From positions 32,001 through 96,000 of the IMG/VR virus record IMGVR_UViG_3300009509_000001: 64,000 nt of DNA. The stretch is one strand, 5' to 3'. A program made the translations under genes and the position numbers. Positions 5,049 through 62,476 of the stretch are shown here, one piece after another. Numbering within the stretch: the stretch's first letter is position 1; every line of letters begins with the position of its first letter. A model generated the notes under the pieces. That model did not search any database. It worked only from the letters and a program-made list of their open reading frames with translations, and was not told where the DNA came from. This stretch comes from a virus.

Positions 5049-7871
5049 TTAAATCATTGGCGGACGGCGCTTGTATGGATGCGTGTCCGGAAGTTGATGC
5101 GGGAAGCCCCATTTCCAGGCGAGGTAGCCTTCGATCTTGTAGATCGTATCCGAGTCTAGCGGAACAGGTACTATCAGCACCTCGTTAACGTCTCCGAAGC
5201 CTTCGGAATCCGTACCTGCGTTACCGCCGAGTGCGGTTGCTTGATCGTCAGGTGATCCGCTGAATACGAACGATAGTGCGCCGCCGTTCTTTTGATAAGC
5301 ATTGCCACCTGGGACGAAGCCTATTAGTGCCCGCTCTGCTTCAGCCCAGGCAATGCCGGAAGCCCCCGTAAAGCCGGGCGCCATGTGTCCGACATCGTCT
5401 CCGCCCGTGTTCACGACAAACGGCTGATTGCCGGCGCTTGTGTACAGAAGCGTCCTGATCGCCGTATTCGCTCGGGGTGCCCCCACTACGAACATGTAAT
5501 AGGTAGCTCCCAGCGGAGTCGTGAAGTCCATGTTGTCGTCGAGTCCGAACGCTACGGTCTTCCCTGTAATCGTCGGTCGCTGTGCCGGTGTGGCCTGGAC
5601 CAGATGGTTGGCGTTGCCGCTCCTGTCATTCCAGGCGGATACGGCCCCGGCACCTTCATCCGTAATGGTACTGGTATACGCTGCGTCGTACCATGCTGCC
5701 GTGGCAATGTCGTTCGGCGTCCAGAGCTTGGTGCGCTGCGGCTTCTTCGCCTTGTACGGGTGGTCAGCCGGCAGATTGGCGGTCAGGCCCCACTTGTGGG
5801 CCAGGTAGCCTTCGATCTGCTGGCGAGTGGTCTGCGAGGCACCCTCAAGTACGATGATTTCGCCCATCGCGCCGTTCATGCCGACAGTGCTGTCCACGTT
5901 GAGGAGTGCGGAATCGGTTACGTCAGCCGGAACGGCGGTACCGTTGGTAGACCCCGTGGACGTCAATTCAACACCATCCAGGAAAGCCTTTGCCTCGGCA
6001 TACTGATCGCCGGCTGCGCGTGTGAACACCGCTATGTGCGCGGTGGCGTCGCCCGCTATGTCGAACTTTACCATACCGTCGATGTATCGCCAGGATAGTT
6101 GGTCCTGTTCATATGAAATGCCCAGGCTGCCGTTGCCCGCGCCGATCTGCAGGAACCTGCCAAAACCGGTGGCTGGGTCGTCGTCACTTGCGAGTACCGC
6201 TACGACACACAAATCAGGGTCGGCGCCGAGGCCGAGCCTGGACGCGATGTCCATTGACTCGGCAGCCGTATCGTCGAAATCAAGAGCGTTACGTCCGTTG
6301 ATCGTACGTATGCGCGTTGTAGGCCGCTGGCTGGCGACACTCTGTATGGCGTGCCTGGCGTTACCGCTCTTGTCATTCCACTGCTGCACGTCGGTCGACG
6401 CCTGGGAGATTATGAGAACCTCGGAGATGGCCAGGATGTACATCTGTTCGGTGACCGCTGCGCTGTCGGCGCGGCGCCACTGGAAGTCGTCCTCGGCTTC
6501 GCAGATGCCCAAAGACACGGATGCCCCGCCCACTTCCTTGCCGGCGAGAGCGGAGCCGTTCTGGGCGCAGCCCGTCCATACAGGCGTATAGTTGAAGAAC
6601 GGGGCCGTGCCGGGAAGATCCGGAGCCGACGAAACCGCGGCACCGTTCTCGAAGCGATTGATCTTGTTGGGAAGCGCGGGCGGGCTGGTGAACAGCCCTG
6701 CCAGGTTTTCCTTTACCGTTTGAGACGCCATATTGAACAGGGCGCTGTCCGTGGAGACGCCGGGGACCATATCCGTATTAACCTGGGCGGCCACCGTCGG
6801 AGTCGATACGAACGCCTTCCAGGTTATGGCTCCGAGGCCGGCAGCCGCTGCCGCCGCCTGGACGTGATTGTTGTAATCGGCGATGTTACTGGACGTCGCA
6901 TCACGCACGGTGCTGCTGACGAAGGCCATGCGATATTTGTCGCCGATCTTCCAGAGAGCGCCCGTGTTCGGATTGATCCCGCCGTTGGCCGTGAGATCCA
7001 GCAGCCCGGCGTTCACCGGAGTCCGTTCGACGGTATCGGCGTCGGCACCGTCGTACCAGGCGACCATAGCGATGTCGCTCGGGTCCCAGTCTTCCGCGGC
7101 CAGCGACGAGTCGGTGGGTGGGCGGTACTTGAACGGGTGGTCTTCCGGCAAACTGGCTGTCAGTCCCCACTTATGGGCCAGGTGACCTTCCATCTTCTGC
7201 CTATCTTCCGGACTCAAGTGCGGTGTGATGATGAACTCGGCGACTGCACCGTCGAACCTTCCTGCGGAGAAGTCGTTGGTACACAGATTAATGAAATAAA
7301 TACTGGTCGGGGCGTCCGGAATGTCTTTATCACTGATAGTAGGATCTACCGTACCGTCCCTGAATATGGAGATGGCACTCCCGTCGAACGCCCACGCTGC
7401 TATGTGCGGATTCGCATCCCAGGTGAATGTCCCTCCGGCCGACGACGGCACTGCTGCGTCATTGCCATAAAAATACCCGCCGAGACCGCCCAAAGTGGCG
7501 CCCGCTCGCAAACCCTTTCCGGCGGATCTGAACGTGAACAGGTTCTCGTTGTTGCTGAGGTCCGATATGGCCACGGCGTATACGTCGTAATCGGTGTTCC
7601 GAAGCCCTGCTGGGGATACTTTCCTCAGACGTTCTTCAAAGGTATCGTTGAAGTCAATGATGTTCTTGCCATTCAACGTACGCGTGCCGGTAGACGGCTT
7701 GAGGGCCAGCGTGGTCTCAGTCAGGTGGTTTCCTTTACCGCTCTTGTCGCTCCACTGCTCCACCCTACCAGGATTGGTGGTGTGGATAACGGTCGACAAG
7801 TCAGAGGCGTCGTACCACGCTTCGGTAGCGAGCAGCTTCGGTGTCCAGGGTCTCATTCCTATTGCTGGCAT
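5049..7871 (-). CDS. Receptor-binding/tail fibre protein with three LamG-like repeats and an inserted lectin-like domain
   Basis: 940 aa; three modules W.P..I...AWYD[AG]...W.D[KR]SG...EG[YH]LA[HW]KWG...LP..HP[YF]K; the second is interrupted by GDKYRMAFVSSTVRDATSSNIADYN... (about 200 aa). Confidence 0.75.
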   Translation of the reverse strand: MPAIGMRPWTPKLLATEAWYDASDLSTVIHTTNPGRVEQWSDKSGKGNHLTETTLALKPSTGTRTLNGKNIIDFNDTFEERLRKVSPAGLRNTDYDVYAVAISDLSNNENLFTFRSAGKGLRAGATLGGLGGYFYGNDAAVPSSAGGTFTWDANPHIAAWAFDGSAISIFRDGTVDPTISDKDIPDAPTSIYFINLCTNDFSAGRFDGAVAEFIITPHLSPEDRQKMEGHLAHKWGLTASLPEDHPFKYRPPTDSSLAAEDWDPSDIAMVAWYDGADADTVERTPVNAGLLDLTANGGINPNTGALWKIGDKYRMAFVSSTVRDATSSNIADYNNHVQAAAAAAGLGAITWKAFVSTPTVAAQVNTDMVPGVSTDSALFNMASQTVKENLAGLFTSPPALPNKINRFENGAAVSSAPDLPGTAPFFNYTPVWTGCAQNGSALAGKEVGGASVSLGICEAEDDFQWRRADSAAVTEQMYILAISEVLIISQASTDVQQWNDKSGNARHAIQSVASQRPTTRIRTINGRNALDFDDTAAESMDIASRLGLGADPDLCVVAVLASDDDPATGFGRFLQIGAGNGSLGISYEQDQLSWRYIDGMVKFDIAGDATAHIAVFTRAAGDQYAEAKAFLDGVELTSTGSTNGTAVPADVTDSALLNVDSTVGMNGAMGEIIVLEGASQTTRQQIEGYLAHKWGLTANLPADHPYKAKKPQRTKLWTPNDIATAAWYDAAYTSTITDEGAGAVSAWNDRSGNANHLVQATPAQRPTITGKTVAFGLDDNMDFTTPLGATYYMFVVGAPRANTAIRTLLYTSAGNQPFVVNTGGDDVGHMAPGFTGASGIAWAEAERALIGFVPGGNAYQKNGGALSFVFSGSPDDQATALGGNAGTDSEGFGDVNEVLIVPVPLDSDTIYKIEGYLAWKWGFPHQLPDTHPYKRRPPMI

Positions 7872-7881
7872 ATGTCAATCC

Positions 7882-9999
7882 TTAAATGTGCGGAGGGTCG
7901 ATCTTGTACGGGTGGTTGGACGGCAGCTTGGCCTGCAACCCCCATTTATGGGCGAGGTAACCTTCGGCTTTCTGTCTCGTTACAGTGTCAGATACCGGGA
8001 CCATAATGAATTCACCTATAGCTGTCAGGGTGTTTGCATCGGCAAAAGCCCCCAGTTCGATTGTGTCTACGGTGAACGGAGGAGTAACCGTGCCGGTTGT
8101 CCCTGCGGCATTTCCGTTAAGATAGCCTTTAACGTTGGTCTCGTCATAGGAGCACGACACTATCATCGGCGTTGCTTCCAGTGTCGCCGAACCGAAAACC
8201 TGTTGGTTAGTTCCGGCGTCGTTTTCCATCCTGAAATTAATAGCCTTGAGTCCGTTAACCTTGGTGTATGCAAACGCCTGGCCACCGGAATTTGATAACT
8301 GCCAGAAGGCTTCATACGCCAGAAGAGGATTATACCAAGCTCCTACAAAAACTACCTCAAACCCGCCGCTGCTCGAAAACGGTAGAGACCCAACGAGCTT
8401 TCTCGGGAACTCCGAGTAAACAGTATTAAGTCCGTTTATGAACTTACTTCCTATCTGCGGCTGCGACGTAGGAACGGCTTGCGACACATGCCGGGCATTG
8501 CCACTCTTATCGCTCCACTGGCTTACAGATCCGCCAGCTTCGGTAACGGTGCTGGTAGCCGAGGCGTCATACCAGGCTGCCGTGTCGATGTCAGCAGGTG
8601 TCCACAGAACCGTAGGAGCTGCGTCCTTGTACGGGTGATCGTCAGGGAGGTTCGCAGTAAGCCCCCACTTGTGGGCCAGGTAGCCTTCGATCCGCTGGCG
8701 GTCTGCAAGAGTCGGCTCTGTCAGCATGATGATGACTTCACCAAGCTTCCCGTCCAAATTGTCGGCGCCGTTACGCCCTAATCGGCTGATTTCAAAGTCC
8801 ACTGCGCTCCAGGTTCCGGCACTGACGGGAGTTCCGCCGTTCTTGGCAACATACGCTTCGTTGTCAGATCCGACCCAGTACTCCAGAATACCTGGTGTTC
8901 CTGCCGATATACCGCTGCCGGCTGCTCCGGTGAAGTCTATACCTCCAACCTCATCGGCACCTAACCTCATATAAAACTTGTCTTGGAACAGCCCAAGTTG
9001 TGTGTATCGACTTGTAGTGGAGTCGTACACCACTGAGTTAGTCGCATCCGAATCCGTCTCCATAACAATAAAGCAGTACAACGGAGGATTATCGGTAATT
9101 ATAGATGATAATGGCATCTGTGTCTGGGGGCTAAGAGCTTGCCAGTCAAGGGTGTTTAATCCATTTATAGTCCTGGTACCTGTAATGGGCTGGACGGTAG
9201 GCGTTGGTTGGATCAGGTGGTTGGCATTACCGCTCTTGTCGCTCCACTGCTCCACCTGTCCGGGCGTCGTGGTGTCGTCGATCGTTGTTTCGTCGGCTGC
9301 ATCGTACCAGGCGGCCGTAGCAATCTTGTCAGGTGCCCAGTTGACGCGCCTGGCGCCGTTGATCTGCTCGACCTTGACGCTGGTGATGATGGCGGAAGCC
9401 GTCGCGCCGATTATGGCAATGGCCAGATCGTAGCCTTTGCGTCCGATGTCGTTGACCGGGTCGGTAGTGTATTCACCTACAAAGGTATGAACGAGGTCAT
9501 CGCTCGCCACCGATCCGGTAAGGCTTACGAATGCCCTTGCTTTCTGTATGGCACCGACACCTACAAAGTCTGACCGACTACCTAGACCTGTTGCTGGAAA
9601 CCCAGGCTCAAAGGCACACAGCCTGACATCGTAGGCACCACTGGCAGCGCCGTAAAGCTTTCCGCTAAGAAACTTGTCGTAGGCCACTGTGATCGTGAAC
9701 CGGTACGTAACCGTATTGATATTGATCGGCCCTATAACACTCTCAGCTGTGATGGCACCGGTGTTGGTGTAGTTGGGGTCAACGCCCTGTTCATCTGCTG
9801 GTCCTGGACTGACCCAGTCCCCGCTAGAGGCATTATTCAAGCCGATACGATCAGCACCGAAGCCATTACTGGACCTAAGCCAGCCGACCGTCGGAACTCC
9901 CTGTAGATACCCGGGAACGACAGGGCTCTCGAAGCCCTCCTCAAACAGAAGAGCTCCCGGCGCAAGCTGCTTTGCGGTGGCTAATACTAGATTGCTCAT
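7882..9999 (-). CDS. Receptor-binding/tail fibre protein with two LamG-like repeats
   Basis: 705 aa; same module twice, after an unrelated N-terminal domain of about 220 aa. Confidence 0.75.
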   Translation of the reverse strand: MSNLVLATAKQLAPGALLFEEGFESPVVPGYLQGVPTVGWLRSSNGFGADRIGLNNASSGDWVSPGPADEQGVDPNYTNTGAITAESVIGPININTVTYRFTITVAYDKFLSGKLYGAASGAYDVRLCAFEPGFPATGLGSRSDFVGVGAIQKARAFVSLTGSVASDDLVHTFVGEYTTDPVNDIGRKGYDLAIAIIGATASAIITSVKVEQINGARRVNWAPDKIATAAWYDAADETTIDDTTTPGQVEQWSDKSGNANHLIQPTPTVQPITGTRTINGLNTLDWQALSPQTQMPLSSIITDNPPLYCFIVMETDSDATNSVVYDSTTSRYTQLGLFQDKFYMRLGADEVGGIDFTGAAGSGISAGTPGILEYWVGSDNEAYVAKNGGTPVSAGTWSAVDFEISRLGRNGADNLDGKLGEVIIMLTEPTLADRQRIEGYLAHKWGLTANLPDDHPYKDAAPTVLWTPADIDTAAWYDASATSTVTEAGGSVSQWSDKSGNARHVSQAVPTSQPQIGSKFINGLNTVYSEFPRKLVGSLPFSSSGGFEVVFVGAWYNPLLAYEAFWQLSNSGGQAFAYTKVNGLKAINFRMENDAGTNQQVFGSATLEATPMIVSCSYDETNVKGYLNGNAAGTTGTVTPPFTVDTIELGAFADANTLTAIGEFIMVPVSDTVTRQKAEGYLAHKWGLQAKLPSNHPYKIDPPHI

Positions 10000-14243: not shown

Positions 14244-15212
14244 CTACAGAAGGGCACCGGTCCGCCAGTTGTGTGCACTGCCGGTGAAGCGTGCCAGGCA
14301 CACTGCGGCAATGTTCGCGACGGTGGCACCCACACATTCGTAGGCGTAGAAGCTGAGCATGAAATCCTCGTGCTTGGTGGACATACAGATGTTGTCCAAC
14401 ACGAAGAAGTCGCCCAGATATTTCGGCGCTGCGAACATGTAAAGGTCGTTGTCGGCGACCAGGTCGTTCTTGATGGTGATGTTCCACTTCAGGCCCATGA
14501 TGGTCCGTTCGGTGAAACCGTTGGTGAAGAGATCTTCAGCCAAGTCACCCCCGATGGTATTCCGGTCGAACGCAACAATATCCCAGATGGTATAGTTGTT
14601 GATCAGACCAGCCACCGGGTTCAAACGACGGTTGGTTGCGGCCAAACCACGCATGGCGTTGGCCAGGGTGTCGCGGTCCATGCCACCAGCCTCGATCGTC
14701 TGACAAGCAGCGAGCGTGGGGTTCGGCACGTTCGGCGTACCGGGAACTACGATGGCATCGACGGTCGCCATGAACTTCCGGTCTTCTTCCGCAAGGATGT
14801 CCTTGAGGATGAAGTCGTTGAAGATCTGACGGATGTCCATGTCGTAGGTGAGCAGCTCGTTGACGTCGGCGACGTAACGACGGCTCATGATACGGTCGAA
14901 CATGACGCGGTAGCGCGGGGCGGTAAGGTTGCTGTCCATGGGGCTGGTGCCGAACGGGACGGTGTAAGCGCCCGCAGAGTTCGGTTCCATGTCCTTGACG
15001 ATGACGGGAAGCGGGGTGTCAACCTGCTTGTCGAGATCGCTGGGCATCACGTCCGCAACGTCGTAAAACTTGCGGGCGAAACCTTCTTCACGTTGACGCA
15101 GGCGAAGGTAGTTGTTAACCTTGTCCTCAGCCTGCTTGCGGATGCCGAAGTCCTGGGAGGTAAGACCCTGGACGACGGACTCGTTCATCATTTTGACTTC
15201 AGAGGTGTTCAT
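14244..15212 (-). CDS. Major capsid protein (HK97-fold, inferred)
   Basis: 322 aa; last gene of a protease-scaffold-decoration run, followed by a terminator; spine-helix-like KDILAEEDRKFMA; strongly biased codons; N-terminal IRKQA processing-like site. Confidence 0.8.
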   Translation of the reverse strand: MNTSEVKMMNESVVQGLTSQDFGIRKQAEDKVNNYLRLRQREEGFARKFYDVADVMPSDLDKQVDTPLPVIVKDMEPNSAGAYTVPFGTSPMDSNLTAPRYRVMFDRIMSRRYVADVNELLTYDMDIRQIFNDFILKDILAEEDRKFMATVDAIVVPGTPNVPNPTLAACQTIEAGGMDRDTLANAMRGLAATNRRLNPVAGLINNYTIWDIVAFDRNTIGGDLAEDLFTNGFTERTIMGLKWNITIKNDLVADNDLYMFAAPKYLGDFFVLDNICMSTKHEDFMLSFYAYECVGATVANIAAVCLARFTGSAHNWRTGALL

Positions 15213-36364: not shown

Positions 36365-38224
36365 CTACATCATGCCACCCTGGGCCTTTGCCTGGGTGAG
36401 TGCTTGCGACTGCACTCCCTGCTCCATTTTCTGCAATTCCTCTTTGACGAGTGCGCTCATGGTCGGGTCCGTCTTGTTCAGGTTCGCGAGCTGACTCTGA
36501 CGGTCAGGTGCAGAGAATACCTGCTGCGCGAATGCGGCCGCATCGGCCTGCATCTGATCCAGTGTCGGTGGTCCGCCACCGCCAACCGGCATTCCGGGTG
36601 CGGGCGCTCCGCCGGCCGCAGGCATTACGCCGCCGGCCGCTGGTGGTGCCGCTTCGCCCTGCGGAAGCCCCATGTTGGCCTGCGCCGCGTTCGGCGGGAT
36701 CTGCCCGGGTGGCGCCATCTGGACGTATTCGTCCAGCATCTGGGCCTTGGACTCCTTGGCGTTCTCTTCGCGTGCGTCGTCGGCCATTTGGCGACGTTCC
36801 TCCTTGAGGCGCTCGCGCTCGATCTCCGGATCGATGTGGAAAGCTTTGAGGGCCGTGGTCTGCGAGACGACGCCGGCGCTGGCCAGATTCAATTTGACCT
36901 GCTTGGTGACGTCGTCTTCCGCGATCGACACATAGACCAGGCGGCCGTGAATCTCTTTCCAGCCGATCTGTTCGCTGCAGGCTTCGAGATACCAGTTTAT
37001 CCAGGTCGAGATCGGATCGGTGAAATGGCTCCAGCTGCGTTCGAAGGCTCTGAGGCCGATCGGTGGTCCGTTGACGGAAGCGAAGCTGCTGCGGTAGAAT
37101 TCGGTGGCCACGCCCATCGTGGTCAAAAGCTGGTCGTATCGGCGCTCGATCTGCTCGGCCGGGGTGATGCTCTGGCCTTCACCGCCGGCGATGTTGTAAT
37201 CGACGGGGGCCGGCAGCGTGTGCCAGCCGGTCGGATCGCTCTTGTGACGGCTGATCATGGCCTTCACGTTGCCCATGAAGTTCTGCATGCCGAAAGTCTG
37301 CAGCGGGTCGACGCCACCCTTGGTGGTGGCTGGCGTCAGATAACGGAGCGGGACGATCCAGTCGCTGGCGATGGCTTCGTCGAAACGCTCGAGCATCTGA
37401 AGCTGCACGACCTGACTGAAACAGCTCATGAACAGGGGTATTCCCCACCCGTCGTTAAGCCTGAATCCGCCTGCGGCCGGTTCGATCGAAAGGTGCTTGA
37501 AGGTCTCCGGGTCGAACCGAAGTCGTGTGCGGTCCTTGACAGCCTCGATGAACTCCCATGGAATGGAGCATAGCGACAAGTGGTCGCCCTTCTGGATCTT
37601 GCCGGCGCTTCGGCCGTCGATCCGCAGATAGAACTCGCGGCGGCCGCTCAGGCGGCAGAAATCGATCTCGACGTCGCGTGGGTCCCAGCGGATGACGACG
37701 AGCCCGCTCTTGTGGCTCTTGTCCTGTGAATCCTTGCGCTTATGTGCGCCGTGAAAGCCGCACGCTGGACAGGTGGACAGAAATTCATAGCCGGCCGACC
37801 ATTTGTAGTCGATGTCGGGCTTGAGTTTTTCGAGCACGCGGGTCATTCCGCACTCCGGACACTGGATGGACCGGTTGATGGGAAGCGTCAGACTGGTAAA
37901 GCTGTTGCCGAACCCGATAAGGTCGTCACCGACCAGACCGGCGTTCTCCAGGATGTTGAAGTCGCGATGGAGCTGGAGCGTGTAGTCCTTCCGCTCCGCG
38001 ACGCTCAGGTCCTCCCCATAGATCTCGAGTTCGTTCAGGAAATATCGAATGGACCGTTTGATGGCCATCGTATAGACGCCGTGACGATTCCACAGCCATT
38101 CCGCCCACTGAAGGACCTCGTCCATCGTGCGCGGGTATATGAGATTGGCGTAGGTTCTAAACGGATTCGCTACGCCCGTTGAGTCCAGGTCCCTTTTGTC
38201 GTATGGATTCAGCTCTATTGGCAT
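36365..38224 (-). CDS. Portal protein with zinc-ribbon insertion
   Basis: 619 aa; DDLIGFGNSF, W.P..V, WGIPLFMSC and ASAGVVSQTTAL motifs typical of portals; CPECG...CPACG insert; M/P/G/Q-rich tail; heads the head module. Confidence 0.75.
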   Translation of the reverse strand: MPIELNPYDKRDLDSTGVANPFRTYANLIYPRTMDEVLQWAEWLWNRHGVYTMAIKRSIRYFLNELEIYGEDLSVAERKDYTLQLHRDFNILENAGLVGDDLIGFGNSFTSLTLPINRSIQCPECGMTRVLEKLKPDIDYKWSAGYEFLSTCPACGFHGAHKRKDSQDKSHKSGLVVIRWDPRDVEIDFCRLSGRREFYLRIDGRSAGKIQKGDHLSLCSIPWEFIEAVKDRTRLRFDPETFKHLSIEPAAGGFRLNDGWGIPLFMSCFSQVVQLQMLERFDEAIASDWIVPLRYLTPATTKGGVDPLQTFGMQNFMGNVKAMISRHKSDPTGWHTLPAPVDYNIAGGEGQSITPAEQIERRYDQLLTTMGVATEFYRSSFASVNGPPIGLRAFERSWSHFTDPISTWINWYLEACSEQIGWKEIHGRLVYVSIAEDDVTKQVKLNLASAGVVSQTTALKAFHIDPEIERERLKEERRQMADDAREENAKESKAQMLDEYVQMAPPGQIPPNAAQANMGLPQGEAAPPAAGGVMPAAGGAPAPGMPVGGGGPPTLDQMQADAAAFAQQVFSAPDRQSQLANLNKTDPTMSALVKEELQKMEQGVQSQALTQAKAQGGMM

Positions 38225-38375
38225 GGATGTCTCCTGTAGCCGCTATGGATGTCAGATTGTCGTCACCGGAATCACGGCACGCCCCGCAGACCGGCACCGA
38301 TTCAAAGCCGGAGACGGCCGGGTTCTTGCGACATCTGCAGCAAACGATCCGCTCACTGCTGTTTTTCTTAATCAT
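38157..38375 (-). CDS. Small Zn-finger-like protein
   Basis: CCRC...VCGAC; overlaps the portal start by 68 nt, so uncertain. Confidence 0.45.
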   Translation of the reverse strand: MIKKNSSERIVCCRCRKNPAVSGFESVPVCGACRDSGDDNLTSIAATGDIHANRAESIRQKGPGLNGRSESV

Positions 38376-39169
38376 GAGATGTCTCCGATGGGTTCTGCAC
38401 AGAAAGGCATTATTAGTAATATATCGCCCTTGTAGGTGAAACTCAAACCGAGGTTGAGTACACTGTGCGCGTTGCCGTCGAACTCGACGGACAGCGGCAT
38501 TTCATGGCTGATCGGCGGTTCGTACATGGAATCCTGGTTCTTCGAACTCGCGAGCACGATGAACCGCTCCTGGGCAAAGGCCGATGCATACGTCGTGGTC
38601 ATACGCCCGAAGGCGCCGCTGAACGTCACGCGGACGCCGTTCTTGGTGACGGGTGCCGTCTCCGGGGCAGGCTGCACTGCCGCTGCTTGCGGCTGCGCCT
38701 GTGGCTGCGCGTTCTGCATGAACATGTTCATCATCTGCATCATCATCTGCATCGGATCGACCGATCCGGGCATCTGTTGAGCCGTCTTCGGCATCGTGCC
38801 TGGCGCCGGCGTGTTGAACATGACGTCGCCGAGGTCTTCCGGAATGCCGGAAGCGGCGGCCTCTTTCGCGTCATTCCCGAACAGGTCGGGCTTAAAGTTG
38901 TCTTCTTCGTGCATAACCATGAATGCTCCGTTTGCGTCGGCCCCTACCTGGCGGCGTTTGAACCCGTCGCCGTACCGCCTTTCCTCGGCAGTCGCCTTAC
39001 CGCTGATGCCACCATCCTTGGTGCTGCGCGGTACGATGGTGTTCTTGCCCATACTTCCATACGTGCCTTCGTCGAGGCCGTTCTCGTCATCAATGCAGAC
39101 GAGCGTCACGTTTCCTGACTTGTGGAACTTCTGAGCGTTCCTGAATACTTCAGATAATGGTTCGCCCAT
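38372..39169 (-). CDS. Hypothetical protein
   Basis: 265 aa; GGAGG SD; MQMMMQMM linker; MPKTA. Confidence 0.75.
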   Translation of the reverse strand: MGEPLSEVFRNAQKFHKSGNVTLVCIDDENGLDEGTYGSMGKNTIVPRSTKDGGISGKATAEERRYGDGFKRRQVGADANGAFMVMHEEDNFKPDLFGNDAKEAAASGIPEDLGDVMFNTPAPGTMPKTAQQMPGSVDPMQMMMQMMNMFMQNAQPQAQPQAAAVQPAPETAPVTKNGVRVTFSGAFGRMTTTYASAFAQERFIVLASSKNQDSMYEPPISHEMPLSVEFDGNAHSVLNLGLSFTYKGDILLIMPFCAEPIGDIS

Positions 39170-47548: not shown

Positions 47549-48421
47549 TTATACGGCGATCGGGGCGATGATGGCCGGATGCGGATCGTACCCGATCCAC
47601 TCGACGTCTTCGTGCGTCCAGCCGAAGATGCCGCCGGGGTTCGTCACCTTGACGCATGGCAGATCCCGCATCTTGCGCCGCAGCTGCTCCTCGATCTGCT
47701 CGATGTGGTTGACGTACACGTGGCAGTCGCAGAGCGTGCCGGTAAGTCGTCCGGGCGTCGCGCCGATCTCACGGCACAGCAGCACGAGCAGCATGGCGTA
47801 GCTCGCGATGTTGAAGGGCACGCCCAGGAACATGTCGCAGCTCCGCTGATGCCAGTGCAGGTTGATCACGCCGTTGACGTACGTGATGTTCCACAGGACG
47901 TGGCAGGGCGGAAGCGCCATCTCGCCGTGCTGTACCGGGTTCCAGGCGCTGCATACCATGCGCCGGTCGTTCGGCATGTTGTGCAGCTTCCAGACGATGT
48001 TGGCCAGCTGGTCGGTCGAGCTCATGTACTCGGGCTCCTTCTTCAGGCCGGCGCTCACCAGCTTGTAGGGCTGCCCGTGGCGGCGCCACTGGTAGCCGTA
48101 GATCGGCCCCAGGTCGTTCCAGTCCTCCTGGCTCATGCCGTAAGGACGGGTCAGCGAGTTGCTCCACTCGTTCCAGATGTTGCACTTGCGGTCCTTGTAC
48201 CACTGCTTGTCCGTGATGCCGCCGATGAAGCCCTCGAGCTCCACGAGCATGGTGCGCTTGGCCATCTTCTTGGTGGTCAGCAGGGGGAAGCCCTCCTTCA
48301 TGTCGTGTTCGAAGTGCTGGGGCGGCAAAACGAGCGTGTCGACGCCCGTGCGGTTCTCCTTCACGTCACTGTCCTGAAGACAGCGCTGAAGCATGTCAAG
48401 ATAACAGAGTTCACCGTTCAT
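47549..48421 (-). CDS. thyA: Thymidylate synthase
   Basis: Start at MNGELCY; FPLLTTKK, LGPIYGYQWR, MALPPCH, HQRSCDMFLGVPFNIASY, DCHVYVNH. Confidence 0.96.
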   Translation of the reverse strand: MNGELCYLDMLQRCLQDSDVKENRTGVDTLVLPPQHFEHDMKEGFPLLTTKKMAKRTMLVELEGFIGGITDKQWYKDRKCNIWNEWSNSLTRPYGMSQEDWNDLGPIYGYQWRRHGQPYKLVSAGLKKEPEYMSSTDQLANIVWKLHNMPNDRRMVCSAWNPVQHGEMALPPCHVLWNITYVNGVINLHWHQRSCDMFLGVPFNIASYAMLLVLLCREIGATPGRLTGTLCDCHVYVNHIEQIEEQLRRKMRDLPCVKVTNPGGIFGWTHEDVEWIGYDPHPAIIAPIAV

Positions 48422-48438
48422 CCGTAATTCCTTTAGGG

Positions 48439-48954
48439 TTAGAGTTGCGCTTGGATCGGGTGCGCATGGGGCGCAAGCGGCATGGCCAACGGGCTTTGCT
48501 CCGTCAGCGACGGCTGGTTCCAGTTGGTGTGATCCCCGTCGTAGTAGGCTACGGTGGACATCAGGACCCCGAAGTCGAAGCCCTCGAGATGCGCATAAAG
48601 CTCCGGCAGCATAATCCGGACGTGCTCGCGTTGTTCTTGCGGGAACATGGCGTTGAACTGACCGGCGATCAACGACGGCGCCTCGTGGCAGAAGTCGACG
48701 AGCGCCTTGGCCTTCTCGGGCATGGCCAGTTCCCACAGGTCGCACATCATGCGGACGGTGCTGACGCGCACCATCCTGATGCACGGCCGTTCCAGGAAGT
48801 CCGAGAGACTGCTGGGCCGAAGCGCGAACGAGCCGCCGGGCCATGTGGGCGCCAGCAGGTCGAACAGTTCGGGCGGCCGGGCTTCACGCATCAGCCGCTT
48901 GGCGATGTCGGTCGTGTTCTCGGCACACTCGATGAGTTGCATAATGTCGCTCAT
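48439..48954 (-). CDS. Hypothetical protein
   Basis: 171 aa; coupled to the upstream small ORF. Confidence 0.65.
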   Translation of the reverse strand: MSDIMQLIECAENTTDIAKRLMREARPPELFDLLAPTWPGGSFALRPSSLSDFLERPCIRMVRVSTVRMMCDLWELAMPEKAKALVDFCHEAPSLIAGQFNAMFPQEQREHVRIMLPELYAHLEGFDFGVLMSTVAYYDGDHTNWNQPSLTEQSPLAMPLAPHAHPIQAQL

Positions 48955-51105: not shown

Positions 51106-51792
51106 TTAGGGTCTAAGGCGCCCTTCAACGCCGCGCTTCTCGCGGTCGCTCGTGCGCTTGTTCATCCACATGAGCGCCTCTTCCAGACGCATGATGGCCT
51201 GCTCGTTCTCCTTGCAGGCGTACTTGCCGGCCTGGAACGCCTGCATGCGGTCGATGATTATGGCGATCAGCGGCTCGTGCTGCAGACCGTTGACGCCGTT
51301 GTGCTTGACGGGGCCTTCCTGGAAGTGGATGCTCATCAGGCTGCGGCCGTGGTCCGTGTCGTCGTTGCTGAACACCTCGTACTGGTGGCACGCTCCGCCG
51401 GGACCCGGCCGGTCCATGCTGCAGACCTCAAGGGCCTTGTCGCTGTAGATCACCCGCACGTGCTCGGGCACGTCCACGATCTTCGGCGCTTCGGCCTTCG
51501 GCTTGTAGACCGGGGGCGTGAACGTGATCTCGTGGGCCGGATCGCCGTCGACGAATATGGTGAACGTCGTGTGGTCGATGTGCTGGGCCTTCTGCAGCGT
51601 ATGGTTGTCGAACACGTAGCCCAGGATGTGCGCGTAGTGCGGCGAATCCTGCAGCATGTCGTGGAACTCGTCGGGAACCCGGATGAACACCACCCGGTCC
51701 TGCCCGCGGTACTGCCGGAGCGCACGGCGCAGCGGGGTCGTGTCCACGCGCTCCAGGTAAAGCTCGTTCGGTGTCGGTATGTAGTCTGCCAT
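51106..51792 (-). CDS. tad1: Tad1/Acb2-family immune-signal sponge with extra N-terminal domain
   Basis: C-terminal ~100 aa: GPGGACHQY...IHFQEG...NG...LIAIIIDRMQAFQAGKYACKENEQAIMRLEEALMWMNKRTSDREKRGVEG, matching the recalled Tad1 pattern GPGGA.H.Y...FQKG...DRL..FQAG...REN..A....EEALMWMN.R..DR..R.V.G. Confidence 0.8.
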   Translation of the reverse strand: MADYIPTPNELYLERVDTTPLRRALRQYRGQDRVVFIRVPDEFHDMLQDSPHYAHILGYVFDNHTLQKAQHIDHTTFTIFVDGDPAHEITFTPPVYKPKAEAPKIVDVPEHVRVIYSDKALEVCSMDRPGPGGACHQYEVFSNDDTDHGRSLMSIHFQEGPVKHNGVNGLQHEPLIAIIIDRMQAFQAGKYACKENEQAIMRLEEALMWMNKRTSDREKRGVEGRLRP

Positions 51793-51802
51793 TGTATCCT
51801 CC

Positions 51803-52564
51803 TTATGTCGATAAACTTATGTTGTCCGTCAGTGCGTTCTTCGCCGCATCCAGCTCGGCCTGAAGCTTCTTCCATTCGGCGCTCATGTCGAGTCCGAACT
51901 CGGCCAGGGCCGTCTGCTTGCTGACCACTCCGGCCTGCATGGCCTTCATGAACACGTTCGGCTGCGTGTTGGGCGTGCCCTGGAACTGTACCGGCTGTTT
52001 GAACTGATGCCACTTGCCGACGCCCTGTTTCTTCGGCGCCATGCGGCCCTGCGCATAGGCTTCGCGGATGACCATGTTGGCCAGGCGCACGTCTATCTTG
52101 CAGACGCGGACGACGTCCTGGCGCTGGAACCACGGACTCTTCTTGGACTTGCACCACTCGCGAATCTTCTCGATGTGAACGTCCAGCGACTGCTTGGACA
52201 CCACGGGCCATCTGGTCCACCGCCGAAACCGCGGTTTTTTATGCTCGCGAGTAATCCTGATGCCGCCGATCGCCTGCATGTCCATGCGGTCGACGTGGTT
52301 GCCCGGAAAGACCTGCATGCCCCAAAGGGTCGGCTCGGCCATGCCGTGACTTGTCTGATACTTCTGACTGCGCCGAAGCCCGTCGTAGGCCGCCGGCGGG
52401 ATCATCAGCGCCACGTTGTCGGCGTCGATGCTCGCCCGGTTCAACCCTGCCCAGGCGCCTGCGGCCGCCAGCTCCGAGAGCGTGATGCCCATGGCCTGGG
52501 CGGTCGCTTCGCGCTCCGACAGCTTCTTGGGGTCCTGCAGCATGTTCTGATTCTGGTACATCAT
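51803..52564 (-). CDS. wHTH-like protein with portal-like C-terminal segment
   Basis: Start at MMYQNQ; FQRQDVVRVC...ANMVIREA...GKWHQF; ends AGVVSKQTALAEFGLD. Confidence 0.7.
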   Translation of the reverse strand: MMYQNQNMLQDPKKLSEREATAQAMGITLSELAAAGAWAGLNRASIDADNVALMIPPAAYDGLRRSQKYQTSHGMAEPTLWGMQVFPGNHVDRMDMQAIGGIRITREHKKPRFRRWTRWPVVSKQSLDVHIEKIREWCKSKKSPWFQRQDVVRVCKIDVRLANMVIREAYAQGRMAPKKQGVGKWHQFKQPVQFQGTPNTQPNVFMKAMQAGVVSKQTALAEFGLDMSAEWKKLQAELDAAKNALTDNISLST

Positions 52565-53217
52565 GGTCTGAACGCCTCGCCGAACATGGTGTTCTTGTAG
52601 AATTCGTTCATCATCTGCTCGCCGAACTCCTTCGGTATGGTCGCGCTTCCGCTGCGGGCCATGTTCTTGAGCGTGGCGACGCGGCGCTTCCACCAGCGGC
52701 CCGACCGCTCGATCAGCTTGTAGCTCTCGGCGTCCTTGAGCATGCGATGGGCCTTGCTCTTCGTGACGTCGAACTCCTTCATGACCATGCCACGGTTGAT
52801 GTAGCTGCTGCCGGTCTGTTCCTCGCGCCGCTTCAGCATGTCCTCGATCTGCTCGTAGTGGAGCCAACGGGCGCCGACGTTGAAATTCACGGCCTTGACG
52901 GCGCTGGCGTTGGCTACGCTGGCGCCGACCTGCTCGCGCACCCGGAACTGCATCATGTATGCCTTGTCCTTGCCGACGGCCGGATCGACGTGGACGTCGA
53001 ACGGCTGGTTCTGGTACTCGCTCATGAAGCGCTTCCGGACATCGTCCTGCCGATGCGGTATGAGCGCTGCGTGCGGGTTATTACGCGGGATGGTTATCAC
53101 CACTTCCTGCGGCGGCACGGCCTTGAGCCGGCCGTTCTTGTCGATGGTCACGAAGCCGTCGCCGTACAGCAGGGCGTCGCGCGTCGCCTTCTCCATTTCG
53201 TGTTCGAACTCTGTCAT
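52561..53217 (-). CDS. wHTH-like protein with portal/terminase-like motifs
   Basis: YINRGMVMKEF...AHRMLKDA...IERSGRWW; N-terminal DALLYGDGFV, FMSEYQNQP, VDPAVG. Confidence 0.7.
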   Translation of the reverse strand: MTEFEHEMEKATRDALLYGDGFVTIDKNGRLKAVPPQEVVITIPRNNPHAALIPHRQDDVRKRFMSEYQNQPFDVHVDPAVGKDKAYMMQFRVREQVGASVANASAVKAVNFNVGARWLHYEQIEDMLKRREEQTGSSYINRGMVMKEFDVTKSKAHRMLKDAESYKLIERSGRWWKRRVATLKNMARSGSATIPKEFGEQMMNEFYKNTMFGEAFRP

Positions 53218-53697
53218 TTATCGTACCTCGAATTTAACGTCTATTACATGGGCCGGCTGTTGAACCGTCACGTCGACCAGCAGCCTGTTCGGATCGTTCG
53301 GGTCCACGCGCACCTCGTCCACGTCGAAGATCTTGCGGGCGAACCCGTCTTCGCGCTGGCGCATGCGCAGGTAGTCGTTGGACGCCTTGGCCAGTGCCTT
53401 GGGCTCGGTCGTCAGCTCGTACCATTTACCGACGCGCTTGGCCTTGAGCATGGTCACCGCCCATTTCAGGATCTTGGCCGCCTCCGCCTCCGTCAGATTC
53501 GCGTGACGAAGCAGGTCGCTGCGCCGCACGTAGAACTTTCCGTTCTCGTCCGGGTTCTTGCCGGCCGTGGCCTTGGCCACCACGGAGTCCCATACGGGTC
53601 CGTAGGCCAGGCCGTCCTCGAGATCGTCGAGCAATCCCTTGATGATCGCCTGGTTCACTCTGGTCAGCTTCGAAACCGTTTCGTCGAATGCTTTCAT
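53218..53697 (-). CDS. wHTH-like protein carrying a copy of the MCP N-terminal segment
   Basis: FYVRRSDLL...AAKILKWA...VGKWYEL; NDYLRMRQREDGFARKIFDV. Confidence 0.75.
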   Translation of the reverse strand: MKAFDETVSKLTRVNQAIIKGLLDDLEDGLAYGPVWDSVVAKATAGKNPDENGKFYVRRSDLLRHANLTEAEAAKILKWAVTMLKAKRVGKWYELTTEPKALAKASNDYLRMRQREDGFARKIFDVDEVRVDPNDPNRLLVDVTVQQPAHVIDVKFEVR

Positions 53698-54155
53698 GTC
53701 GTCTCCGGCGCCTTGTGTTTGTACGGATGTCTGTCCGGTAGTTGGTCGTACAGCCCATGTCGATGGGCCATGTAGCCTTCCACCTTCTCGCGGATGGCGG
53801 TCTGCCGGTCCTTGAACCGGTACCAGCAGCCGTTGGCGTGCCGGAGCATGCCGCCCCTGATCAGGGTCTCGAGCGCCTCTTCGGCTTTCGGCCCGAACAG
53901 ACGGAAGAGCTCCGACCGGCAGGTGTAGACGCAGCCCGACTCGTCCGGCGTCTTCCGCTCCAGGAACTCGGCGAGCTTAGTGCGGTAGTGCGTGAACGTC
54001 TGCGGCCTCGGGATGTCCTCGTGCACGACGGCAAACCCGTTCGTGATGGCCTTCACGCTTATGACTCCGTCCTCCGGGTCCTTGAAGCTGACGAACTCGC
54101 TGTCCATCACTTGCGGAACGACGGGCGACGGGAAGCTCATGCCGTAGGTGTTCAC
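53694..54155 (-). CDS. wHTH-like protein carrying the tail-fibre module C-terminal motif
   Basis: VYTCRSELF...AEEALETL...NGCWYRF; ends EGYMAHRHGLYDQLPDRHPYK. Confidence 0.75.
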   Translation of the reverse strand: MNTYGMSFPSPVVPQVMDSEFVSFKDPEDGVISVKAITNGFAVVHEDIPRPQTFTHYRTKLAEFLERKTPDESGCVYTCRSELFRLFGPKAEEALETLIRGGMLRHANGCWYRFKDRQTAIREKVEGYMAHRHGLYDQLPDRHPYKHKAPETT

Positions 54156-54418
54156 AGAATGTCCTCGTTGGTCAGGGCCTTACGCACTTCGGCCAACAGC
54201 CCTTCCTGGTTCACGTAATGTCGTTTGCTGTGCTTGCCGCTGGCCCACCGGCCGTTGACGCGCAGTCTGTATTTGTAATCGTCGGCGGGATCGTTGGTCC
54301 ACTGGGATTTGCGGAACACTTCGATCCTGCATGAGCCTTCCCGCCCACGCAACAAAGTCAGGTTGCCCACGGGTAGTCGTTTCTCAGCCATTTGTCGGTA
54401 CCTTTGCTTCTTGGCCAT
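54152..54418 (-). CDS. Basic hypothetical protein
   Basis: 88 aa; first gene after a terminator/promoter gap. Confidence 0.6.
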   Translation of the reverse strand: MAKKQRYRQMAEKRLPVGNLTLLRGREGSCRIEVFRKSQWTNDPADDYKYRLRVNGRWASGKHSKRHYVNQEGLLAEVRKALTNEDIL

Positions 54419-54520
54419 GGCATTTCACGGGCGGTTCGCCTGAGCGCCATTGCAGCTTCGTTTACGGCTAATATGCGGCGTTACAGCGGCAACTTCAAGC
54501 GCTGCCGGAAAAAAGGCATG

Positions 54521-54547
54521 AAAAAAGCCGCCGGTCGACCCGGCGGC
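54521..54547 (-). terminator. Rho-independent terminator
   Basis: GCCGCCGG-GTCGA-CCGGCGGC then TTTTTT. Confidence 0.8.
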
Positions 54548-54572
54548 CAGGGAGAGAAGAGTCCGAAAGGGT

Positions 54573-54836: not shown

Positions 54837-55283
54837 TTACAGAAACTTCTCCAGCTCGTCGTTGAGCTTCAGATAGCCTTCAGGGGCTTTGTCGCCCTTG
54901 AAAATCAATTCGACCTTTGCCTTCGTGTTGCGGCTGAACATGCCGCGGCGCATTTCGATGCTCATCTCGTGCTTGCACTCGTCGTCGTCGCACTCGTGTT
55001 CGTCCAGGCCACCGATCTCCACGTCGAACTCCATGCGCATCTTGTCGAGGCGAATGCCGCTGGCTGGCATGAGCGCAAGCATCGGCACTTCGATCTCTCG
55101 CATGGCTCCATCGCCGCCCGGCACCGGAACCTGCAGCTTGAGGGTCTTGACCTTTCCGTCCTCGTCGATGTGCTGCTTGATCGTATCAAGATGCTGGTTG
55201 CGCACCAGTTCCTGGGCCTTGATCACCGCGTTCTGCAGCGCCCGTATAAGTTTGCTCAGTCCCGTTACTCGTTTGTGTGCCAT
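54837..55283 (-). CDS. DUF2589-like protein (partner type)
   Basis: L..LIRALQNAV..AQ......IEVPMLALMP.S...D.M.MEFDV...I.L...G...PEG..KL. Confidence 0.65.
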   Translation of the reverse strand: MAHKRVTGLSKLIRALQNAVIKAQELVRNQHLDTIKQHIDEDGKVKTLKLQVPVPGGDGAMREIEVPMLALMPASGIRLDKMRMEFDVEIGGLDEHECDDDECKHEMSIEMRRGMFSRNTKAKVELIFKGDKAPEGYLKLNDELEKFL

Positions 55284-55914: not shown

Positions 55915-56201
55915 AATACCGGCTGCTCCTCCGTGATACGCGGCTGTCTGGTAAATCCGATGTGGTAGACTATGTGCTGGAGCACTACCTGGTGCTCGCC
56001 CATCTGGTACACGGCGAAGCCTTTCTCCTGCCCGATCAGCTTGCCCCTTGGGGACGACCGGTTGATGAGGAAGTTCACCTTGTCCATCGCCTTTCGGATC
56101 TCCTCTTCCGTCTTGATCCTGCTTGGATCGGTGTTACCCACGACGACCCGCTCTACGTGTCGGATCGCCGTGAGATCGAATGGTTTGTCGTCGTGCGACA
56201 T
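55911..56201 (-). CDS. Conserved-looking hypothetical protein
   Basis: 96 aa; coupled to the DUF2589 gene; R.VVG..DP...GEHQVVLQ...YHIGF.R.P. Confidence 0.7.
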   Translation of the reverse strand: MSHDDKPFDLTAIRHVERVVVGNTDPSRIKTEEEIRKAMDKVNFLINRSSPRGKLIGQEKGFAVYQMGEHQVVLQHIVYHIGFTRQPRITEEQPVL

Positions 56202-56836
56202 CAGGGCGTTGTTGCCGGGGTTGGGCTGATGGCGTCGTTCATCATGTCGAGAACGCGGGCCAATCCTTCAGGCATGCCGCTGTCCGACGCACTGACCGTG
56301 ACGTCGTACTTGGCGCTGTTGTCGCTCTTGCGCGTGTGCGCCGAGTGCGACGAGGTCTTGCCATGCACCTTGACCGTGGCCTTGAACGGACCCCAGCCGA
56401 CACTGGCGCTGCCTTCGAAGCCGGCTTCGCTGTCGCTGGCCTCGGTGTCCTCGGTACTGGAGTTGACGCTCATGGTGAAGGCGATGTCCACCTTGTCGAC
56501 CTTGAGGGACGGCATGGGGATGATGGCCAGCAGCGGTACGTCGATCTCCACGTTCTTCGGGGTGATCTTGGAAACCGTCTTGGTCTTGTCGGCCGGGTCC
56601 TCCACCTGTTCAAGGATGTTCTGCATGTAGCCGAACTTCACCATGTTGGCGACCTTGATCGTCTTGGTCTTGTCGGCCGGGTCCTCCACTTCCTGGAATC
56701 CGGTCTTCAGAATGAAATCCGCGTTCGCACTGATCATCTGCGCGTTCGCCTTGGCTGCGGCCTGCAAAGGGCCGCCGATCAGGGAATCCATCGGCAGGTT
56801 GCCGAATTGTTTACCCATGTCTACGAGTCCAGGCAT
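56201..56836 (-). CDS. DUF2589 family protein
   Basis: QFGNLPMDSLIGGPLQAAA...VPLLAIIPMPSL...GWGPF...TRKSDNSAKYDV.V.A...GMPEGLARVLD; GGAGGT SD. Confidence 0.8.
   Translation of the reverse strand: MPGLVDMGKQFGNLPMDSLIGGPLQAAAKANAQMISANADFILKTGFQEVEDPADKTKTIKVANMVKFGYMQNILEQVEDPADKTKTVSKITPKNVEIDVPLLAIIPMPSLKVDKVDIAFTMSVNSSTEDTEASDSEAGFEGSASVGWGPFKATVKVHGKTSSHSAHTRKSDNSAKYDVTVSASDSGMPEGLARVLDMMNDAISPTPATTP
56576..56689. repeat. 30-nt exact direct repeat inside the DUF2589 gene (VEDPADKTKT x2)
   Basis: CGTCTTGGTCTTGTCGGCCGGGTCCTCCAC at 56576-56605 and 56660-56689. Confidence 0.9.
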
Positions 56837-58746: not shown

Positions 58747-60267
58747 TTATAGTCTTACCCACCAGACGTAGTCGTCTTCCAGGTGAAGTTCCAATTTGGC
58801 CGTGGCCACGAACTCGTCGACGGCCTGCTTCACCTGTGGTCCGAAGGTCGTGCCGTTGCGCGTCGGGTGGTTGTAGTCGTGGCCCGCCAGTATCCCGCCG
58901 GACTTCACGCGGTTTCGCCACATTGAAATGTCCTTGGACACCGCCTTGTAGCTGTGGTCCGCATCCAGGAACACCAGGTCGAACAGGCTGCCCGGCGTGT
59001 TCCTGTACGCCTGTTCGCTCGTGGCCTTTCGCACACGGATGCGCTTACCATACGGGTACAGCGCCCACATGGCGTCCAGCATGTTTAGTCGATGCCGCTT
59101 GTCGTCCTGGTTGGCGATGTAGTCGCCGGTCGCCGCATACTCGCTGCCCGTCGGCGGCGGCGCCCAGACGTCGACCGCCAGTATGTTGGCGGATGGAATG
59201 GCTGCGGCCAGGTAGGCCGTCGTCTCGCCGCGGTAGACGCCGATCTCGGCGATGCGTGGATTGGCGATCCCATCAAGAAGCCGGTGGAGTACACGGGCAC
59301 GCCCATACGGCGCACGCGGCTCCGGCCGCTCATCATAGCGGGCCAGCTTTATCGGCATCTTCTCGAAGTGCTCCCACTGGCCACTGAAGCCGCTAGTGTC
59401 CTTACGTAGCCACGTAGTGGTGAGTTCGCTTCGATCACTGATCGTCGTGTAGCCACGGATGGCTATGTGCGGAACACCGTCACGAAAAGCCACGACCCAC
59501 CACCATTCCATGCGGCTGCAGCCCTGACCAATGGTTCCGTCTGCCCGAAGCTCGATGTCCCTGGAGTCGTGGCCCACGCGTTCATACTTGTAGAATCCGG
59601 CGAACTCCTGATAAAGCTCGTAATCCTCGAACGGCATGTCCAGGTGATGGCTCTCGGCAAGCTGGTCGCCGGCACTCTGCAATGACCGCCACTTGTGGGC
59701 GCCGATCACGGGGATGCCGGCCTCGATGGATTCCCGCGCCGTCACCAGCCAGTTGAACACCCGTGGCAAATATGATACCTCGACGTCCATAATCCCGACG
59801 GCCATGTTCAATGCCGTCTGCTCCATGAACGGACTTGCGTCCAGTATGACGTCCTCGGTGAGCCGCCGGGCCACCCGCAGATAGTCGGCGTGCCCTCTGT
59901 TCATGATCATGAGACCTGCGTTGAAGTAGTTGGCCGACGTGGCGCCAAACTTCTCCATGCATTCGTCGATGACATGGGCGGCGTAGTTGACGTCCCTTAC
60001 CACCTGGAGCTTGCCGTCAATAACCTCCGCCGGGTTCCATTGTCGGCAGAACAGGATGTCAGCGTCGAAGTAGATCACTGTGTCGGCGTCCACGTAGTCG
60101 AACGCATACGTGCGCATGAGCGACGGGTTCAAGCATCCGCTGTCCTCGTACTCACGGTCACCGAGGATCGTCACGGGCAGGCCCGTACAAAGCTCGAAGC
60201 GCCGTGCCGCTTCCTGCGCCAGCGGCAAGTGTCCGCCGGTTCCTACAGTCAGTCCGATCATATTCAT
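58747..60267 (-). CDS. GT8-like glycosyltransferase fused to a class I SAM methyltransferase (Methyltransf_24-like)
   Basis: YFDADILF (DxD), YFNAGLMIMN; C-terminal IAEIGVYRG, VFLDADHSY, GGILAGHDY. Confidence 0.8.
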   Translation of the reverse strand: MNMIGLTVGTGGHLPLAQEAARRFELCTGLPVTILGDREYEDSGCLNPSLMRTYAFDYVDADTVIYFDADILFCRQWNPAEVIDGKLQVVRDVNYAAHVIDECMEKFGATSANYFNAGLMIMNRGHADYLRVARRLTEDVILDASPFMEQTALNMAVGIMDVEVSYLPRVFNWLVTARESIEAGIPVIGAHKWRSLQSAGDQLAESHHLDMPFEDYELYQEFAGFYKYERVGHDSRDIELRADGTIGQGCSRMEWWWVVAFRDGVPHIAIRGYTTISDRSELTTTWLRKDTSGFSGQWEHFEKMPIKLARYDERPEPRAPYGRARVLHRLLDGIANPRIAEIGVYRGETTAYLAAAIPSANILAVDVWAPPPTGSEYAATGDYIANQDDKRHRLNMLDAMWALYPYGKRIRVRKATSEQAYRNTPGSLFDLVFLDADHSYKAVSKDISMWRNRVKSGGILAGHDYNHPTRNGTTFGPQVKQAVDEFVATAKLELHLEDDYVWWVRL

Positions 60268-62474: not shown

Positions 62475-62476
62475 AA

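Follow-up and report, generated by a model that had tools for sequence, protein, structure and literature searches.

Phage operons that pair an anti-CRISPR with an Aca regulator, or that encode HTH-fused anti-CRISPRs such as AcrIIA1, are small and early, carry a strong host-type promoter, and place a helix-turn-helix (HTH) domain within or beside the counter-defense module. In phage T4, short targeting segments bring the accessory internal proteins IPI-III into the capsid, and a capsid segment of ~30 amino acids, the Gol peptide, is sensed by the host through Lit. Here we describe a cassette that invites comparison with each of these. It lies in a 64,000-nucleotide stretch of DNA (the window; bases 32,001–96,000 of the complete 194,576-bp genome of an uncultured phage with direct terminal repeats, IMG/VR record IMGVR_UViG_3300009509_000001). 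The cassette consists of six coupled genes in the order leader, A, B, C, D and Tad1 homologue, in which each of A to D joins a winged helix-turn-helix (wHTH) core to a graft of 25–55 amino acids with homology to one of the phage's virion proteins.

As in the anti-CRISPR operons, an HTH domain is fused to or lies beside a counter-defense module, and in two related loci (L009 and L032) Tad1 itself is HTH-fused. By contrast, the winged helix of the cassette is of the CRP type rather than the Xre type, the appended parts are the phage's own virion peptides rather than inhibitor domains, and autorepression is putative. The same virion proteins are sensed by bacteria: the major capsid protein (MCP) activates Thoeris ThsB (PMC12578639), the portal activates the TIR protein SpbK (PMC12847820), side tail fibers determine sensitivity to Thoeris II (bioRxiv 10.64898/2026.06.04.730250), and Avs proteins sense the core virion proteome (reviewed in PMC13728456). 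The MCP, portal and Gol triggers lie naturally inside virion proteins, whereas the cassette carries extra copies on separate carriers. Like anti-signaling hotspots (bioRxiv 10.64898/2026.06.04.730250), the cassette is most likely accessory and varies between relatives, and its array is coupled to a homologue of the Tad1 sponges (PDB 8KBB and 7UAV). The wHTH-graft proteins themselves, however, resemble neither a sponge nor any known anti-defense family in Pfam or PHROGs. Capsid-targeted internal proteins such as PhiKZ gp184 (PMC11297242) offer a further parallel, in that the Tad1-like neighbor matches gp184. In contrast to gp184 and T4 IPI-III, the would-be targeting peptides are C-terminal copies of pieces of MCP, portal and fiber. 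The arrangement also recalls the integrated decoys of plant NLRs (a concept cited in PMC11702601), where part of a target protein is duplicated onto an unrelated carrier and engages the recognition machinery of the opponent. In plants, the decoy belongs to the host and serves to detect the pathogen, whereas in the cassette it would belong to the virus and serve to evade the host. We found neither a family nor a system of this design described in Pfam, PHROGs, PDB, BFVD, the ESM Atlas or the literature that we searched.

Because the donors of the grafts (MCP, tail fiber and portal) coincide with published immunity triggers, we rank first a reading in which the cassette would provide early counter-defense by mimicking virion-protein triggers, and put its probability at about 0.35. 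In the following, we describe the architecture of the cassette, its conservation, its operon context and its accessory distribution, and weigh the competing explanations against them.

Results

Array proteins carry pieces of the phage's own virion proteins

The original prediction, made from the letters of the window alone, held that three of four coupled open reading frames carry segments matching a structural gene: MCP in the frame starting at 53218 (our B), a tail-fiber module end in that at 53694 (A) and the portal in that at 51803 (D). We compared A-D by BLASTP with the phage's own 240 proteins, with 100 shuffles as control. Residues 119–153 of A align with all five module ends of the 705- and 940-residue fiber-like proteins (53–58% identity, 44 bits), and residues 107–152 of B align with MCP residues 33–71 (16/23 identical in the helix, 40 bits); neither match was reached by any of the 100 shuffles, and the margin exceeded 10 bits over every one of them. 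As single sequences, C (against MCP residues 280–313) and D (against portal residues 443–476) score 26.6 bits, which 8–9 of 100 shuffles equal.

The matches of C and D reach significance only with family profiles. Searched against the proteome, the profile hidden Markov models (HMMs) of the subfamilies each returned virion proteins as their single significant match: class A the fibers (E = 1e-24 and 1e-18), class B MCP residues 30–64 (1.4e-7), class C MCP residues 264–313 (6.6e-4) and class D portal residues 442–481, that is, the crown (4.9e-4), with all next-best matches at E ≥ 0.09. The reverse search with an MCP profile recovered B (4.5e-10) and C (5.7e-5), and hhalign gave P ~5e-4 for both C/MCP and D/portal. 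The predicted MCP and fiber segments are thereby confirmed; the portal segment of D holds at the level of the family profile, but not as a single sequence, where it stays within the range of the shuffles. Coordinates of the cassette and of the donor genes are collected in Table 1.

Table 1. Positions in the window of the cassette, its control signals and the virion genes that donate the grafts.
Feature	Position	Strand	Description
Terminator	54526..54548	-	Intrinsic, closes the upstream unit; 9-bp stem with 8 GC pairs, then T-run
Promoter	54470..54499	-	Sigma70-like, TTGAAG-17-CATATT, for the operon; read from sequence
Leader gene	54152..54418	-	88 aa as listed; conserved part from ~54391 (MAEKRLP); always the first cassette gene
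A	53694..54155	-	153 aa; wHTH core 53805–53990, C-terminal graft 53706–53801 (fiber-module end motif)
B	53218..53697	-	159 aa; long N-terminal helix, wHTH core 53404–53598, C-terminal graft 53221–53391 (MCP aa 30–78)
C	52561..53217	-	218 aa; portal-type N-terminal motif 53041–53196, MCP C-terminal graft 52873–52974 (MCP aa 277–313), wHTH core 52675–52863
D	51803..52564	-	253 aa; N-terminal domain, wHTH core 51992–52186, portal-crown-like graft 51845–51958
Tad1 homologue	51106..51792	-	228 aa, last linked cassette gene; ~120-aa N-terminal extension
Portal protein	36365..38224	-	phrog_2739 match; donor of the D graft (aa 442–481)
Major capsid protein	14244..15212	-	phrog_2522 match; source of grafts B and C and, in relatives, of the E-class graft
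Fiber-like virion proteins (two)	5049..9999	-	940 aa and 705 aa, modular, with LamG-type modules; phrog_10356

The donors are recognizable virion proteins. The MCP shares 25% identity with its counterpart in Salmonella phage Arash and belongs to a clade for which we found 349 metagenomic homologues, many on contigs of 100–185 kb; its residues 33–47 are nearly invariant among them. The portal matches those of Arash (E = 2e-53) and Bacillus phage G (1e-4). The two fiber-like proteins match phrog_10356, annotated as 'virion structural protein', at 2.7e-73 and 3.4e-49, and every one of their modules ends in the motif copied by A, giving five copies; this motif also occurs in tail-fiber and structural proteins of Xanthomonas phages and cyanophages. 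Within the MCP clade, the blocks copied by B and by a fifth graft class, E, which is found in relatives, are the most conserved, and B-type grafts retain the invariant Y-L-R...E..F residues. Over the B graft, 15/69 nucleotides differ from the MCP gene and 6/16 identical residues use different codons, so the graft is not a recent copy but an old one maintained as protein sequence. Together, these observations argue that the grafts are real and selected.

Protein C carries a second segment of interest. Its N-terminus matches phrog_27442 (9e-8) and the HK97-type portals of phrog_12 (0.01); it has no similarity to the phage's own portal, and we found no terminase similarity or motifs in C. The portal/terminase-like motifs that had been claimed for this gene are thus only partly supported. 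The C N-terminus also resembles, marginally, residues 57–81 of a 265-residue protein encoded just upstream of the portal (0/200 shuffles for C, 9/200 for its orthologue P0007). The gene for this protein (window 38372–39169) has a Q/M/P-rich low-complexity center and is a scaffold-like candidate.

The portal-type motif of C bears on one alternative, namely that the grafts are dominant-negative interface peptides that poison co-infecting relatives or satellites with the same capsid, portal or fiber modules. Resemblance to a portal other than the phage's own would suit such a role, as would the copying of the most conserved blocks, which are widespread in the clade. However, the closest matches of the peptides are the phage's own proteins, so its own assembly would be poisoned too, and no satellite or exclusion context is visible; we regard this explanation as improbable.

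A plainer alternative is that the grafts have no function of their own, being fragments captured by recombination and kept as generic helices or strands (linkers or oligomerization elements) of ordinary wHTH regulators. Phage genomes are mosaic, the single-sequence matches of C and D are weak, and the grafts are modeled with low confidence, at a predicted local distance difference test (pLDDT) score of 40–70. Yet there are five separate classes, all from virion proteins; they are conserved across lineages and keep the donor's invariant residues; and the background rate of such matches in the proteome is near zero: an all-versus-all BLASTP of 244 proteins gave 5 non-self pairs at E < 1e-3, three of which are array-versus-virion pairs. 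This explanation, too, seems to us improbable.

The shared core is a winged helix of the CRP/FNR type

A core of ~60 amino acids is alignable in all four coupled minus-strand genes A-D, which bears out the shared pattern that had been noticed in them, and a six-frame HMM search found it at these four sites only in the 194.6-kb genome. A 13-sequence core profile matches residues 187–222 of CLP (PDB 3IWZ; helix E, helix F and the wing) at E = 9.8e-5, and Vfr at 3e-3. The AlphaFold model of B (pLDDT >89 over residues 1–100) shows a long N-terminal helix, helices at 59–66 and 70–82 and a hairpin at 86–95; in the model of D, the core (residues 124–188) has a pLDDT of ~85.

Searches with these models matched winged-helix proteins exclusively in Foldseek and VIA-align (Sso10a, CRP, MarR, IclR, Z-alpha and the SelB WH), the VIA-align matches having Z 7–8.4 and a root-mean-square deviation of 2–3 Å over 61–70 residues. 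For D, matches of the core filled the list of fold matches, so that the search assigned no fold to the N-terminal domain. Structural neighbors in the ESM Atlas were weak (TM <0.5) yet also winged-helix proteins, with no feature matches, and a BFVD fold search returned generic HTH proteins only, none significant. No Pfam family scored above cut-off for A-D, and no PHROGs family was found for the core. From the profile match, the models and the fold searches, we conclude that the core is a winged helix-turn-helix of the CRP/FNR type; a winged-helix-like fold is what the original prediction had proposed. The cores are mostly basic, with isoelectric points of 9–11.

A conserved promoter and leader gene precede the array

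Nearly all genes of the window lie on the minus strand, and those of the cassette are tightly coupled. The junctions read GTGA (leader/A), ATGA (A/B), TAAATG (B/C) and ATGA (C/D), and after D, a 10-nt spacer carrying AAGGAGG leads to the Tad1-like gene (AAGGAGG-N7-ATG). The true start of D is the ATG at 52564 and not the upstream TTG of the listed open reading frame. The array was thus rightly placed directly upstream of a Tad1-like gene in one operon.

A hairpin and T-run occupy the position equivalent to that of the window's terminator in three other loci (L008, L009 and L015). The promoter blocks CTTGA and TAT.TT are invariant in four aligned loci, the window and three other phage contigs; a simple scan misses this promoter because only 8/12 positions match. 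The array is thus predicted to be transcribed jointly with the Tad1 homologue from a conserved host-type promoter. A k-mer search for a phage promoter gave no enrichment. Downstream of the -10 box, L009 (9251–9316) and L015 (9401–9466) each contain two 20-nt TTGCC-N10-GGCAA elements at a distance of 26 nt, and weaker versions occur at 54400–54470 of the window; these could be operators or a 5' untranslated-region hairpin.

The leader is 71% and 43% identical to the first cassette genes of L008 and L009, respectively, and is also present in L015, L031 and L032. It matches phrog_18900, a family without known function, at 2.4e-6.

Graft classes are reshuffled between lineages of a probably accessory cassette

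An exhaustive HMMER search with the core profile, together with a family-profile search, found the core-plus-graft design in at least six other metagenomic contigs (L008, L009/L010, L015, L032/L033, L031 and L007), with classes A to E. Class E carries MCP residues 96–146 and is absent from the window array. L008 (80 kb) has a leader, B-, C- and D-type genes and Tad1; L009/L010 have a leader, E-, A-, B- and D-type genes, one extra gene and a Tad1 fused to an HTH_3 domain. In L032/L033, the leader is followed by five compact genes, four of which join the core to the MCP C-terminal graft, MCP residues 96–146 (E = 5.9e-15), the fiber-end motif and the MCP N-arm (1.4e-8), respectively, while the fifth is a D-type gene; one gene and HTH_3-Tad1 come next. 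L015 and L031 contain further variants, in one of which a crown-like segment precedes the core.

By class, the A design (core plus fiber motif) recurs in P0010 and at 4283–4618 of L032; B has orthologues in L008 (187 aa), L010 (128 aa), P0005 and L032 (128 aa); C has the orthologue P0007 and compact core-plus-graft forms in L032 (118 aa) and L015 (92 aa); and D has P0011, P0013 and a 257-residue orthologue in L009. The array is always preceded by a conserved leader gene of 79–88 codons and the conserved sigma70-like promoter, and a Tad1 homologue follows it wherever the contig extends far enough (four contig lineages). The unit thus consists of a ~60-residue winged helix and one graft of 25–55 residues, with at least five classes reshuffled between lineages. 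Related phages with a conserved core and swapped fragments are what the original prediction had anticipated; the fragments are present and conserved in orthologues, and no result that it had named as grounds for rejection was obtained.

Between the window and L008, the array proteins are 28–35% identical overall and 68% identical in the graft helix, compared with 30–48% for neighboring accessory genes, 71% for the leader and 93% for MCP. The array genes rank with the most rapidly diverging ones, in a region that is variable throughout. The array-linked MCPs P0017 and P0020 have the same N-arm as the window MCP.

Nine IMG/VR relatives with MCPs 42–83% identical (one complete 185-kb genome, three ~80% complete, the remainder 20–52% fragments) gave no core match in a search for which the phage's own genome was a working positive control, and Tad1 was absent in all five relatives tested for it, the complete genome included. 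On this basis, the cassette is most likely accessory, and the array most likely dispensable for phages of the same capsid family. No close DNA or protein relatives of B, C or D were found in cultured phages, where A returned only matches of the fiber motif; scans of IMG/VR with B, C, a D-like alignment and the leader gene gave no true relatives; a JGI metagenome scan re-found the NCBI contigs and nothing further; and a word-based protein search with B found B itself only.

The distribution is also relevant to the idea that the array proteins are assembly-sensing regulators, whose wHTH would control late genes while the graft is bound by a free partner (scaffold, chaperone or neighboring subunit), so that transcription is adjusted to the amount of subunits not yet assembled. 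The P22 scaffolding protein provides a precedent for autoregulation coupled to assembly, and both the CRP-type DNA-binding fold of the core and the presence of one paralogue class per virion component fit such a scheme. However, the complete and the three ~80%-complete relatives have the same MCP family and invariant N-arm with no detectable array, and close relatives differ in which array genes they carry; moreover, base-contacting residues lack conservation, and no common operator lies near the structural genes. We consider such regulators unlikely, though less so than either of the explanations weighed above.

Three other origins of the design were considered and rejected. An assembly chimera is excluded by the presence of the design in independent assemblies; a decayed second structural module by the open reading frames, which are unbroken and coupled and show no colinearity with one; and silent gene-conversion cassettes by the fact that the grafts copy the invariant, and not the variable, parts of their donors.

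The last cassette gene is a Tad1 homologue

Residues 124–225 of the protein encoded downstream of D match the Tad1 structures 8KBB (E = 9e-23) and 7UAV (7e-18), and the protein also matches phrog_2428 (4.6e-37). The Pfam domain Acb2_Tad1_hairpin is below cut-off in the window protein and on record for the L008 orthologue. By homology, the gene encodes a true Tad1 homologue and a putative sponge. In L009 (11946–12593) and L032 (6025–6675), an Xre-type HTH_3 domain is joined to the N-terminal side of the Tad1 domain and takes the place of the window's extension; fusion of an HTH to a counter-defense module hence recurs within the cassette.

The C-terminal part of the 228-residue window protein also matches the 230-residue gp184 of PhiKZ (8Y6V_I, E = 1e-8), a minor protein on the inner capsid surface that is cut by the head protease (PMC11297242), and in Bacillus phages, Tad1 homologues carry a structural-protein annotation. 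Some phages may package Tad1-type domains.

These matches lend weight to the main rival of trigger mimicry, one that the original prediction does not name, in which the grafts would dock the wHTH proteins and the extended Tad1 onto MCP, scaffold, portal and fibers, so that they are packaged and reach the next cell together with the DNA, in the manner of T4 internal proteins and PhiKZ inner-capsid proteins. The MCP pieces used are the N-arm, the E-loop/spine-helix block and the C-terminal strands, which are interface and scaffold-facing parts of an HK97-fold MCP, and no A-domain piece was seen among the array members found; the basic cores are likewise expected for proteins packed with DNA. Set against this, the conserved sigma70-like promoter suggests expression by the host polymerase, probably early, a fiber-end graft has no obvious place inside the head, and the grafts are C-terminal, whereas the targeting sequences of T4 internal proteins are N-terminal. 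Delivery as virion cargo is doubtful in our view, if the likeliest of the alternatives.

Genomic surroundings

Upstream of the cassette lie two DUF2589 genes (54837–55283 and 56201–56836), a pair that L015 also has upstream of its cassette, and a run of large glycosyltransferase/methyltransferase/GNAT acetyltransferase fusion genes (58747–63775), which in L008 is partly conserved and rearranged. Elsewhere in the window, a 1452-residue protein (26717–31075) combines two parts of RNA polymerase, Rpb2 domain 6 and Rpb1 domains 1 and 2; this is a multisubunit RNA polymerase gene of the fused beta/beta'-like kind, and the phage is not PhiKZ-like. A thymidylate synthase of 431 residues (47549–48844) matches its Pfam domain over residues 148–431 only, leaving ~147 N-terminal residues outside the domain unless the start codon is miscalled.

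Discussion

The genetic context of the array favors an accessory, early, counter-defense role. We infer the timing of expression, the binding partners and the effect on immunity in the following scheme. The cassette would be an accessory operon, probably for counter-defense, that is read by the host RNA polymerase and ordered as promoter, leader, three to five wHTH-graft genes and Tad1 sponge. Each wHTH-graft protein would be a small basic winged-helix carrier that displays one conserved peptide of a late virion protein, either MCP (N-arm, E-loop/spine helix or C-terminal strands), portal (crown) or fiber (module end). Made before or alongside the real virion proteins, these peptides would act as molecular mimics and occupy the sites of whatever normally binds them. 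The likeliest targets would be host sensors of capsid, portal or fiber, of the Thoeris/TIR, Avs or CapRel type; the peptides would engage these sensors without activating them, and Tad1 would mop up the remaining signal. For the winged helix, possible roles are Aca-like autorepression and tethering to DNA, as in HTH-fused anti-CRISPRs. Stated in its most specific form, as a 'trigger-mimic' array of interchangeable wHTH carriers whose invariant virion peptides competitively blind host sensors in a unit coupled to a Tad1 sponge, the proposal is more tentative than the general reading of counter-defense by trigger mimicry.

Several points weigh against trigger mimicry. Known sensors mostly recognize folded domains and not peptides of 25–55 residues, and a mimic that binds a sensor could activate rather than block it. 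A decoy function alone leaves the role of the wHTH unexplained, and the recognition helix is not conserved across the cores and is acidic in some members. The promoter-proximal repeats, searched for as TGCC-N10-12-GCAA operators, show no enrichment genome-wide. The fast divergence of the array is not exceptional, because neighboring accessory genes are conserved to a similarly low degree, and the resemblance of the Tad1-like protein to an inner-capsid protein points to packaging rather than to cytoplasmic decoys.

Capsid, portal and fiber proteins that are under immune sensing and cannot mutate confront a phage with a problem to which the array is a concrete, testable candidate answer. The grafts mark 'addressable' functional segments of 25–55 residues in an HK97-fold MCP and in the portal, which are useful for studies of sensor-trigger pairs. 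If the rival readings were true, the array would represent a new capsid-targeting code or a new coupling of gene control to assembly; trigger mimicry, if true, would mean that viruses evade bacterial immunity on a new principle.

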